Shown here: positions 36,175-38,372 of the stretch, piece by piece
How positions within the stretch are numbered: position 1 is the stretch's first letter
Layout of the letters: each line of letters starts with the position of its first letter
From: a virus
Reading direction: 5' to 3' (one strand)
UHGV virus genome: UHGV-0038300
Length of the DNA: 39,892 nt
Made by a program: the position numbers and the translations under genes
The notes under the pieces: generated by a model
The model's input: only the letters and a program-made list of their open reading frames with translations
What the model was told of the DNA's origin: nothing
Databases searched by the model: none

Positions 36175-36441
36175 ATGAATAAGGTTTCAATGCGCAGTCC
36201 GTCAAAGATTGTCGCCGTTACTCCTGCGGCGATAGAGATCGAAAAACGCGCGATTGAAAGAGAGAAAAAAGGGCAGTTCCGCATTGCCGCTCACCTTTGG
36301 CTTCAGTGTATGGATGTTGCTTCTGGTGATGTTGAACGTGCAAGGATCGCGGTTCGCAGGGACCAATGTATCACAAAAGGTAACGGCCTTCGCCGTGGCG
36401 ACTATAGCGGCATAGGATGTTGCGGGGTGGTTTATGAATAA
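36175..36441 (+). CDS. PerC-like small transcriptional regulator (tentative)
   Basis: Segment ...AIEREKKGQFRIAAHLWLQCMDVA...ERARIAVRRDQC... resembles the PerC/Pch family core; start codon uncertain (GTG 36142 or ATG 36175). Confidence 0.4.
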   Translation: MNKVSMRSPSKIVAVTPAAIEIEKRAIEREKKGQFRIAAHLWLQCMDVASGDVERARIAVRRDQCITKGNGLRRGDYSGIGCCGVVYE

Positions 36442-37537
36442 ACAAAACAATAATATAAAAGGTAATATCATGAGCAAGGTAGGCGATTATTTCTTTGAAT
36501 TTCCCGCATCACGAGGAACGCAGGGAAGCACTGTAATACTTATGATGACAGTACCAGCAAGAGCACTATCGAGAGTATTGGCAACCGACAATACGGGAAG
36601 TACCCTTGAACGTTCTCAACGTGAAATTAATCCAACCAGGGTAAAAAAGTTTTATCAATATTTAGTCAACGCTTACGAGAAAAAGGAACCATTTATTGTT
36701 CCACCATTGGTCGGAAATTGTAACTCAGAAATAGAGTTCCATGAGATTGGAAATACTAATGTCGGTTTAGTTAGATTTCCTATGGATGCAGAAATAAAAT
36801 TATTCGATGGACAGCATCGTGCTGCAGGATTAGCTGAGTTCTGCCGTAATTATGGTGAAACAATTATGATTCCTCTTATGCTTACGCATAACCTTCCTTT
36901 GAAGGCGCGTCAGCAGTTCTTTTCTGACATTAATAATAATGTTTCAAAACCATCTGCAGCAATTAATATGGCGTATGACGGACGAAACGATGTTGCCCAA
37001 GAAATGGTGTCTTTCCTGTCGCAACATGACACTTTTGCAGAAGTCACTGACTTCGAGCACAACGTTGTTCCGTCAAAGTCAAACATGTGGGTGAGTTTCA
37101 AAGCATTAAGTGATTCAACATCAAAATTTTGTATTCATAATGGAAAAAAACTAGAAATTGGTAACATCGAGTCAGTATGGGAATCATGGTTATGTCTTAC
37201 ACAACTAGAAGCAATTCGCCATGGTACAAAGCAATCAGAATACAAAAGAGAATATATCCAGTTTCATGCAGTGATGATTAACGCTTTTGGTTATGCTGTT
37301 CAGCAAATGATGGTTAATCACTCAATAAAAGAAATAATTTCAATGATTGAAACATTATGTGCAAACACTGACTTCGCAGAAAGAGAGAATTTTTTCCTAA
37401 TGGATAATTGGGTTGGGATCTGCACGAAAGCAAGCCAGGAAAAACTATCAGTTATTGCTAATGTAGCAGCACAGAAAGCGGCAGCAAACAGGCTGATACA
37501 AGCCTTTACCAAAGGAAGTCTGGGAGCAGAACAATGA
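36434..37537 (+). CDS. DGQHR-domain (DndB-like, ParB/sulfiredoxin-fold) protein
   Basis: Exact DGQHR motif (...KLFDGQHRAAGLAEF...); alternative start ATG 36470 with an AAGG RBS; overlapping stop/start with the methyltransferase gene. Confidence 0.7.
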   Translation: MNKQNNNIKGNIMSKVGDYFFEFPASRGTQGSTVILMMTVPARALSRVLATDNTGSTLERSQREINPTRVKKFYQYLVNAYEKKEPFIVPPLVGNCNSEIEFHEIGNTNVGLVRFPMDAEIKLFDGQHRAAGLAEFCRNYGETIMIPLMLTHNLPLKARQQFFSDINNNVSKPSAAINMAYDGRNDVAQEMVSFLSQHDTFAEVTDFEHNVVPSKSNMWVSFKALSDSTSKFCIHNGKKLEIGNIESVWESWLCLTQLEAIRHGTKQSEYKREYIQFHAVMINAFGYAVQQMMVNHSIKEIISMIETLCANTDFAERENFFLMDNWVGICTKASQEKLSVIANVAAQKAAANRLIQAFTKGSLGAEQ

Positions 37538-38181
37538 AAAAATACACGCTAATCTATGCAGATCCACCCTGGGTATACCGGGACAAAGCCGCAGATGGTA
37601 ATCGCGGCGCTGGTTTTAAATATCCAGTTATGAGTGTGCTGGATATCTGCCGCCTTCCTGTGTGGGATTTGGCCGCTGAAAACTGTCTGTTGGCCATGTG
37701 GTGGGTGCCAACACAACCACTCGAAGCACTAAAAGTTGTTGAAGCCTGGGGATTTCGTCTTATGACCATGAAGGGCTTCACGTGGATAAAATGTGGTAGT
37801 CGACAACCAGATAAACTGGTTATGGGTATGGGACACATGACTCGCGCCAATAGTGAAGATTGCCTGTTTGCGGTAAAGGGAAAACTACCTCCGCGCATTA
37901 ATGCAGGGATCGTTCAGTCATTTACCGCACCGCGGCTTGAGCACTCAAGAAAACCAGATGTCGTTCGTGAAAAACTTGTGCAATTGTTAGGCGATGTTTC
38001 TCGCATTGAACTGTTCGCCCGCCAGTCGTCTCATGGCTTCGATGTTTGGGGTAATCAGTGCGAAGACTCGGCAGTGCAACTACACCCTGGATACGCGTTG
38101 GATATTGGCGGATTAACAAATGCATTCAGCAATTCTCCGCTGTCACCAACAGACAACCAGGGGCGGGAGCGTGCTGCATGA
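37534..38181 (+). CDS. MT-A70-family N6-adenine DNA methyltransferase
   Basis: Catalytic DPPW motif (...LIYADPPWVY...) and overall MT-A70-like sequence. Confidence 0.85.
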   Translation: MKKYTLIYADPPWVYRDKAADGNRGAGFKYPVMSVLDICRLPVWDLAAENCLLAMWWVPTQPLEALKVVEAWGFRLMTMKGFTWIKCGSRQPDKLVMGMGHMTRANSEDCLFAVKGKLPPRINAGIVQSFTAPRLEHSRKPDVVREKLVQLLGDVSRIELFARQSSHGFDVWGNQCEDSAVQLHPGYALDIGGLTNAFSNSPLSPTDNQGRERAA

Positions 38182-38372
38182 ACAGGGCATCACCAGCAGA
38201 TTTAAGAAAATGCCTTGAAACTGCAAACATGCTTGCACACAGCGGGATCAGGTTTGTTCCAATTCCCGCTGTCACTGATGCTGAATTTGCAACACTGTCA
38301 GCAATATTCGAAAACAAAATTGAATCACTGGCAGCAGAAGCAGAGATGGAAGAAAATCAGCAGAACTATTAA
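38178..38372 (+). CDS. Small hypothetical protein (64 aa) translationally coupled to the methyltransferase
   Basis: Its ATG overlaps the methyltransferase TGA (ATGA); acidic C-terminus; convergent with the integrase gene. Confidence 0.4.
   Translation: MNRASPADLRKCLETANMLAHSGIRFVPIPAVTDAEFATLSAIFENKIESLAAEAEMEENQQNY

Follow-up and report, generated by a model that had tools for sequence, protein, structure and literature searches.

In the virus genome UHGV-0038300 (39,892 nucleotides (nt); hereafter the window), the stop codon of a gene for a DGQHR-domain protein overlaps the start of a gene for an MT-A70-family adenine methyltransferase (MTase), and we found this order to be recurrent and directional: in 19 of 36 DGQHR lineages, the DGQHR gene is followed by DNA MTase genes, which belong to five unrelated families. 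Tentatively, and with somewhat less than even confidence, we favour the reading that the DGQHR protein is a ParB-fold nucleoside triphosphatase (NTPase) that would act on DNA and, by analogy with its relatives, assist or gate phage DNA methylation. The original prediction—made from the sequence alone—had suggested that the three genes could be a DNA-modification, anti-restriction or modification-sensing module; of this, the link between the DGQHR gene and methylation stands as plausible, as the order recurs with five MTase families, while the third gene, a small open reading frame (ORF) of 64 amino acids (aa), is not part of it.

To place the pair in a wider context, we compiled 113 DGQHR loci (28 from reference genomes, 80 from viral contigs and the rest from annotated phages) that form 36 lineages at 95% DGQHR identity, and detected nearby MTase genes by tblastn with MTase seeds, confirmed by Pfam, within a limit of 3 kb. 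A DNA MTase was encoded at most 3 kb downstream of DGQHR in 58 of the 113 loci and 19 of the 36 lineages, and upstream of it in a single locus, with similar flank availability on both sides (19 lineages vs 1; binomial p = 4e-5). The nearest downstream enzymes belonged to the MT-A70 (26 loci), PF05869 Dam (19), D12 Dam (7), N6_N4 (5, usually followed by a C5 enzyme) and C5 (1) families. MTases from three unrelated families are found paired with DGQHR proteins of at least 95% mutual identity, an observation that argues against a specific protein–protein interface.

The same order was present in distant phages and prophages of Vibrio, Rheinheimera, Shewanella and Alkalimonas (28–39% identity). 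Vibrio phage Va_PF430-3_p42, for example, encodes DGQHR, a C5 MTase, a small ORF and an integrase (int) in succession, and Salmonella phage SPN1S a PerC-like protein, Orf60a, DGQHR, an MTase (4-bp overlap), a small ORF and int; in Citrobacter (locus L013), DGQHR and MTase are ~20 nt apart. The two genes of the window align to those of SPN1S and Citrobacter as one co-linear block of ~71% identity, with similar proportions of nonsynonymous differences (pN; 0.156 and 0.149); both genes are under strong purifying selection in these comparisons (pN ~0.15, synonymous sites saturated). One lambdoid lineage carries a further ORF between DGQHR and MTase, either c11 (154 aa, no Pfam match) or c39 (~178 aa, with three helix-turn-helix (HTH) motifs). 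In a scan anchored on c11, 19 of 20 loci had a DGQHR gene 9–12 nt upstream of c11, and 19 of 20 had an MTase gene abutting c11 downstream, with three different MTase families represented.

Several of these loci have additional features. The c39 protein shows a weak GcrA-like match, and the c11/c39 sites are located at L004 9065–9529, L042 1711–2247 and L118–L135 4001–4460. In Klebsiella phage ST101-KPC2phi6.3 and several prophages (L032 2588–3373, L007 3941–4834, L072, L074 and L076), DGQHR is preceded, immediately or at a distance of one gene, by a canonical ParB/Spo0J-like gene; these loci thus have two ParB-superfamily genes in tandem and no MTase. In Pseudoalteromonas phage KB12-38 (L034 435–5053), the genes around a distant DGQHR homolog are annotated as 'PAPS reductase', C5 cytosine methylase and 'sulfate reductase', a hint of another kind of DNA-modification setting that may be Dnd-like or IbrA/B-like.

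Searches with hidden Markov models upheld the DGQHR domain call: the protein matches PF14072 (DndB) at 159.5 bits (cutoff 29.1; E = 1.5e-46) and TIGR03187 at 192.3 bits (cutoff 58.85). The label 'DndB-like', however, holds at the level of this domain and not for DndB itself, as the DndB equivalog model TIGR03233 scored 111.4 bits against a cutoff of 328; the protein is a DGQHR-family member other than DndB. It was placed in phrog_7901 (function unknown) by PHROGs and matched to DndB by PADLOC. An exhaustive profile search for the family returned 791 representatives at E < 1e-3, and there were 229 close homologs at E < 1e-5, with 52–99% identity among the 120 of these that were listed. The motifs described for the family—the QR pair, the DGQHR pentapeptide and FxxxN (PMC4619093)—correspond to R48-S-Q50-R51, D113-G-Q-H-R117 and F151-S-D-I-N155, and each is 98–100% conserved across 130 diverse representatives. 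The N-terminal domain was assigned to the ParB/Srx fold, and this fold together with the motifs matches ParB-type NTPases.

The C-terminal half of the protein is helical. Its long C-terminal helix begins with an [RK]-x6-H pattern at residues 259–266 (355-aa numbering), which is kept in ~75% of representatives (R in 79, K in 11 and H in 74 of ~99 aligned) and would be compatible with the Rx4-6H motif reported for the HEPN domain of DndB (PMC3632139); the subfamily to which the window protein belongs has Lys instead of the canonical Arg. As to other nuclease types, an HNH motif at 'FEHNVVP' was ruled out because the His and the 'EH' pair are unconserved. The His-Me motifs of the GmrSD/SspE type, (D/E)H...N...N, were likewise not found: position 197 is mostly K, R or N, the downstream Asn motifs are absent, and DUF1524 gave no match. 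A Pfam and motif check detected no HNH, DUF1524 or PD-(D/E)xK nuclease domain in the DGQHR protein.

The MT-A70 assignment of the second gene was equally firm (PF05063, 77.9 bits, cutoff 23.9, E = 1.2e-21, covering profile positions 1–172 of 172), with the catalytic DPPW motif at residues 10–13. The protein also matched the PADLOC Type II MTase model (1.6e-77) and phrog_359 ('DNA methyltransferase'), its best PDB relatives are MT-A70 proteins, and it is 97% identical to the MTase of phage phiV10 and 82% to that of Stx2a phage P13374. Because an ORF and domain scan revealed no restriction endonuclease gene adjoining it between PerC and int, we consider the enzyme an orphan despite its PADLOC MTase_II match. 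Its identity with M.EcoGII was ruled out, the latter being a 349-aa beta-class protein.

All three ORFs of the original prediction were recovered at the positions given there (36434..37537, 367 aa; 37534..38181, 215 aa; 38178..38372, 64 aa), the last one contained within a 104-aa ORF with a GTG start. The translational coupling is likewise borne out, as both junctions are ATGA stop/start overlaps with a Shine-Dalgarno-like GGGAG 7–8 nt ahead. The DGQHR and MTase ORFs are in different frames with a 4-nt overlap and therefore specify two polypeptides, not a ParB-fold/MTase fusion. For the DGQHR protein, a start at Met13 (ATG 36470, 355 aa) is more likely than one at ATG 36434, being the start shared by the majority of aligned homologs, by the PHROG profile and by an identical gene as annotated by PGAP; the upstream codon stays a candidate, since it is the MTase start in phiV10.

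Comparison with phiV10 showed that the DGQHR gene forms a cassette whose position coincides with the ATGA junction that joins PerC to the MTase in that phage. In blastn, the flanks match phiV10 at 35700–36449 (98%) and 37537–38400 (97%), with nothing matching in between. The ATG at which the phiV10 MTase starts is, in the window, the earliest in-frame ATG of the ORF for DGQHR, and the window MTase has a new ATGA-coupled start. The low GC content of the DGQHR gene (38.7% vs 49.5% for the MTase) suggests that it may have been acquired; the equal divergence of both genes from SPN1S suggests that an ancestral DGQHR–MTase pair may have been lost in phiV10.

The 64-aa ORF is a homolog of Orf63 of phage lambda. 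It matches PF07131 (DUF1382) at 105.2 bits (cutoff 27; E = 1.8e-30), and in a phmmer search its residues 2–62 match PDB entry 8DSB (E = 8.5e-13), a nuclear magnetic resonance structure of lambda Orf63 that nevertheless bears the molecule name 'Xis (Excision72)'. For the same reason, we ruled out that this ORF encodes the excisionase, which is more likely the product of the AlpA-family gene at 35784–36032. Lambda Orf63 is a pro-lytic developmental protein with no known partner. The notion that the three genes form one system was abandoned, as the MTase–Orf63 pair belongs to the exo-xis backbone and is found without DGQHR. phiV10, a further 16 phage records and ~520 of 5426 complete Escherichia coli genomes have the order PerC–MTase–Orf63–int at 97–98% identity but no DGQHR gene; the DGQHR cassette is present in only 21 genomes. 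Similarly, phage P13374 encodes a regulator, its MT-A70 MTase and an Orf63 homolog in this order, again lacking DGQHR. From these phages and genomes, we conclude that MTase–Orf63 is a common lambdoid backbone and DGQHR a polymorphic addition to it; the Orf63 homolog is a separate exo-xis-region gene outside the mechanism considered here.

In that mechanism, a stand-alone ParB/Srx-fold, NTP-binding DGQHR protein would be produced alongside the phage's orphan adenine MTase when the phage grows lytically or is induced, both genes being at the distal end of the early-left operon. It would target DNA and not the MTase protein, by nucleotide-dependent DNA binding or clamping after the manner of ParB and DpdB, and through acting via DNA it could be partnered by any MTase family. 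Its action would help or gate methylation of the replicating phage DNA, whereby progeny DNA would be shielded from host restriction. A DNA-acting, NTP-dependent accessory factor fits best because of the indifference to MTase family, the tight upstream coupling and the lack of an own promoter or operator. We infer NTP binding, DNA binding and the effect on methylation, including its sign, from analogy, and the characterized relatives point in opposite directions: DpdB is a ParB-like ATPase needed for DpdA to modify double-stranded DNA, without a stable complex (PMC10164549), whereas DndB, an ATP-modulated repressor of dndBCDE that acts through TACG-N10-CGTA boxes, limits modification (PMC4507180). 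Prophages are enriched in fusions of the ParB fold to MTases, and binding of ATP and GTP is documented for a DndB-like protein (PMC12704722).

Several observations weigh against this reading. Seventeen of the 36 DGQHR lineages have no nearby MTase, including the largest group (31 loci), in which DGQHR is followed by a TraR-type zinc finger and DUF4222 instead. The 97%-identical MTase without DGQHR in phiV10 and the ~520 E. coli genomes argues that the enzyme presumably works alone, and part of the order bias could stem from conserved lambdoid synteny combined with in-situ allele replacement. None of the ten longest proteins in the set of 150 best representatives turned out to be a DGQHR–MTase fusion, and no MTase partner of the plasmid homologs (see below) was identified in the IncL/M example examined. 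Finally, the structure model of the DGQHR protein is only moderately confident (pLDDT 72.9).

Some of these points would be expected if the DGQHR protein functioned independently—as an autonomous early-entry, anti-defence or nucleic-acid-targeting factor that shares an accessory hot spot (the phage exo-xis region, the plasmid leading region) with MTases—an explanation that we regard as a serious rival, if a somewhat less likely one. The lack of an MTase in about half of the DGQHR lineages, the frequency of the MTase without DGQHR, and the interchangeable pairing of near-identical DGQHR proteins with three MTase families all fit with it, as does the occurrence of homologs on plasmids. A DGQHR homolog of ~43% identity is encoded on 1055 plasmid records, 878 of them conjugative; on the IncL/M plasmid examined (NZ_OQ821165.1, pOXA-48 type; L117 6989–8272), the homolog is 427 aa long, and the leading-region-like block around it includes antirestriction, ssb, Hha, DUF1380 and DUF4942 genes. 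In addition, some other members of the ParB/Srx group, Osa among them, are conflict effectors that work on their own (cited in PMC10853773). Independence would, however, leave the strong order bias and the immediate adjacency or translational coupling of the genes to be explained, along with a linkage that is kept across very divergent phages with different MTases and the tightness of the DGQHR–c11–MTase triad.

As for the surroundings of the plasmid and related homologs, PsiA and PF03230 antirestriction genes are typical of conjugative leading regions. In L015–L019 (~8000–11500; Buttiauxella, Dryocola and Pseudescherichia; chromosomal or draft sequences), a DGQHR variant of 438–460 aa is directly followed by PsiA (PF06952), a neighbourhood that also speaks for an independent function, and in L015, L016 and L019 a PF03230 antirestriction gene lies within four ORFs after it. 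The DUF4942 neighbour on IncL/M plasmids, considered as a potential MTase, matched no MTase family and was left uncounted. In many plasmids of 63,589 bp, the DGQHR homolog gene is interrupted by IS1B.

A further proposal, which we consider rather unlikely, is that DGQHR proteins constitute an unrecognized early-entry module that is widespread in both phages and conjugative plasmids: the ParB-fold NTPase would load onto newly entered or replicating DNA and license or speed its modification by whichever orphan MTase is encoded downstream. This would carry the DpdB–DpdA principle over to ordinary S-adenosylmethionine-dependent MTases and so amount to a general anti-restriction strategy. Alternatively, the protein could shield methylated DNA from modification-dependent (Type IV, DUF262-type) restriction.

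We also weighed a DndB-like transcriptional controller that would bind an operator, repress its own operon and so keep an orphan MTase of potential toxicity in check, much as DndB limits phosphorothioation. Within the family, a mechanism has been demonstrated for DndB alone (PMC4507180), phage adenine MTases such as M.EcoGII can be toxic when unregulated (PMC5778455), and an upstream position with indifference to MTase family would suit a regulator. The locus itself makes this explanation improbable: neither an intergenic region nor a promoter-like site precedes the gene, which abuts PerC, and the nearest plus-strand promoter match is ~2.9 kb upstream; TACG-N10-CGTA operator matches number 11 in the window vs 8.6 expected, with none within 35,200–38,400, and the sole inverted repeat is weak. 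Furthermore, the protein falls below the DndB equivalog cutoff, and phiV10-type phages tolerate the same MTase without DGQHR. Very improbable, lastly, is a prophage defence or exclusion effector of ParB-like and HEPN-like composition (AbiU1/AIPR/DUF262-type) that attacks incoming nucleic acids while the MTase marks self—the C-terminal [RK]-x6-H pattern and the PADLOC assignment to DndB notwithstanding—given that the gene lies inside a lytic early operon and, having no separate promoter, should be silent in the lysogen, that the nuclease domains sought are missing, the 'EH' pair is unconserved and Lys replaces the canonical Arg in this subfamily, and that in half of the lineages an MTase that could mark self is missing.

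The original prediction had not recognized the arrangement as a described system. It is not unseen, however: PGAP annotates it and the sequenced phage SPN1S carries it, and ParB-fold/MTase associations are already known as a kind, although our literature search found no account of phage or plasmid DGQHR proteins or of a DGQHR–MTase module. Among described systems, the DpdB protein of the Dpd 7-deazaguanine system (PMC10164549) differs in that its partner is a transglycosylase and its motif DGQQR, whereas the window pairs DGQHR with an S-adenosylmethionine (SAM)-dependent MTase. Moreover, the window gene belongs to a phage early operon, where no dpdA (tRNA-guanine transglycosylase (TGT)-like), dpdC or restriction genes adjoin it, and MTases normally need no helper, the window MTase itself occurring without DGQHR. 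With DndB (TIGR03233; PMC4507180), the protein shares PF14072, the DGQHR, QR and FxxxN motifs and the leading position in the operon ahead of modification genes; it differs in the equivalog score given above and in lacking an operator, an upstream promoter region and dndCDE, in place of which its neighbours are PerC, MT-A70, Orf63, integrase, AlpA and RecT.

Prophage fusions of the ParB-CTPase fold to MTases (PMC12704722) and the MTases of phage ParB–terminase loci (PMC4738411) similarly combine a ParB-superfamily domain with a DNA MTase, implying cooperation, but the window has two coupled genes, a protein of the DndB/DGQHR branch and a site in the early exo-xis region by int, not in a packaging module. 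The lambda exo-xis region (orf60a, DUF1317; orf63, DUF1382; PMC10869804, PMC5575149) resembles the window in its Orf63 homolog and in its site between recombination genes and int, and SPN1S has an Orf60a homolog just before the DGQHR gene; lambda, however, lacks DGQHR and the MTase, which are here inserted between the Orf60a and Orf63 positions. M.EcoGII (PMC5778455) is also an orphan adenine MTase on an E. coli prophage, presumably active at induction only and protecting phage DNA, yet it is a non-specific, 349-aa beta-class enzyme of PF01555 type, whereas the window enzyme is a 215-aa MT-A70-domain protein.

Orphan phage MTases are a major escape route from restriction, and the assumption is that they work by themselves. 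If they were assisted or gated by a ParB-fold NTPase, this would add an extra layer to phage and plasmid anti-restriction, give a function to the large uncharacterized non-Dnd DGQHR branch (with a homolog on more than 1000 sequenced plasmids) and extend the DpdB precedent of NTP-dependent DNA modification. Were the association only positional, it would still help to define which genes make up the exo-xis region in lambdoid and epsilon15-like phages, a region that is poorly understood.

The window is a phiV10/epsilon15-like (Uetakevirus) prophage, and in strain EC21 the same element is integrated beside guaA. Its genes run from a repressor-like HTH protein through a terminator and promoter-like site, small ORFs, a PDDEXK nuclease, RecT, AlpA and a PerC-like protein to DGQHR, MT-A70, DUF1382 and a convergent int (Table 1). 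A consensus scan detected no further plus-strand promoter or terminator between 33550 and 38600, and the module therefore appears to close the early-left operon. The early-operon setting of the original prediction thus holds, with the module at the distal end beside int and its timing of expression deduced from this position. As the lambda annotation shows orf63 to be of the DUF1382 family and Orf60a of DUF1317, we regard this stretch as the counterpart of the lambdoid exo-xis region.

Table 1. Features of the DGQHR–MTase locus and its surroundings, in window coordinates.
Feature	Position	Strand	Evidence or remark
Putative early-left promoter, sigma-70-like consensus match, after terminator 33451–33470	33522..33550	+	Consensus scan
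PerC-family transcriptional activator gene, directly 5′ of the module	36142..36441	+	PF06069 6e-07; phrog_868 1.6e-61
Presence/absence cassette vs phiV10, ~1.1 kb	36439..37537	+	ATGA junctions at both ends; phiV10 alignments
DGQHR-domain (ParB/Srx-fold, DndB-like) protein, 355 aa	36470..37537	+	Longer form of 367 aa from 36434
MT-A70-family N6-adenine MTase, orphan, 215 aa	37534..38181	+	Start ATG overlaps DGQHR stop (ATGA)
Lambda Orf63 homolog (DUF1382), 64 aa	38178..38372	+	Start overlaps MTase stop (ATGA)
P4-type tyrosine integrase, convergent, marks prophage end	38376..39626	-	PF00589, PF13356, PF22022

The PerC/Pch family regulates the locus of enterocyte effacement (LEE) in enteropathogenic and enterohaemorrhagic E. 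coli (EPEC and EHEC), and the stop codon of the PerC gene overlaps the alternative DGQHR start at 36434. The recombination module upstream is mosaic among near-identical prophages: the window encodes a DUF3799 PDDEXK nuclease and RecT at 34035–35734, phiV10 a fused RecE–RecT of 586 aa (L001 1375–3135), and EC21 a YqaJ nuclease with a different RecT (L002 3704–5635). At 2001–3000, a GC content of 35.9% against a window mean of 48% suggests another foreign insert.

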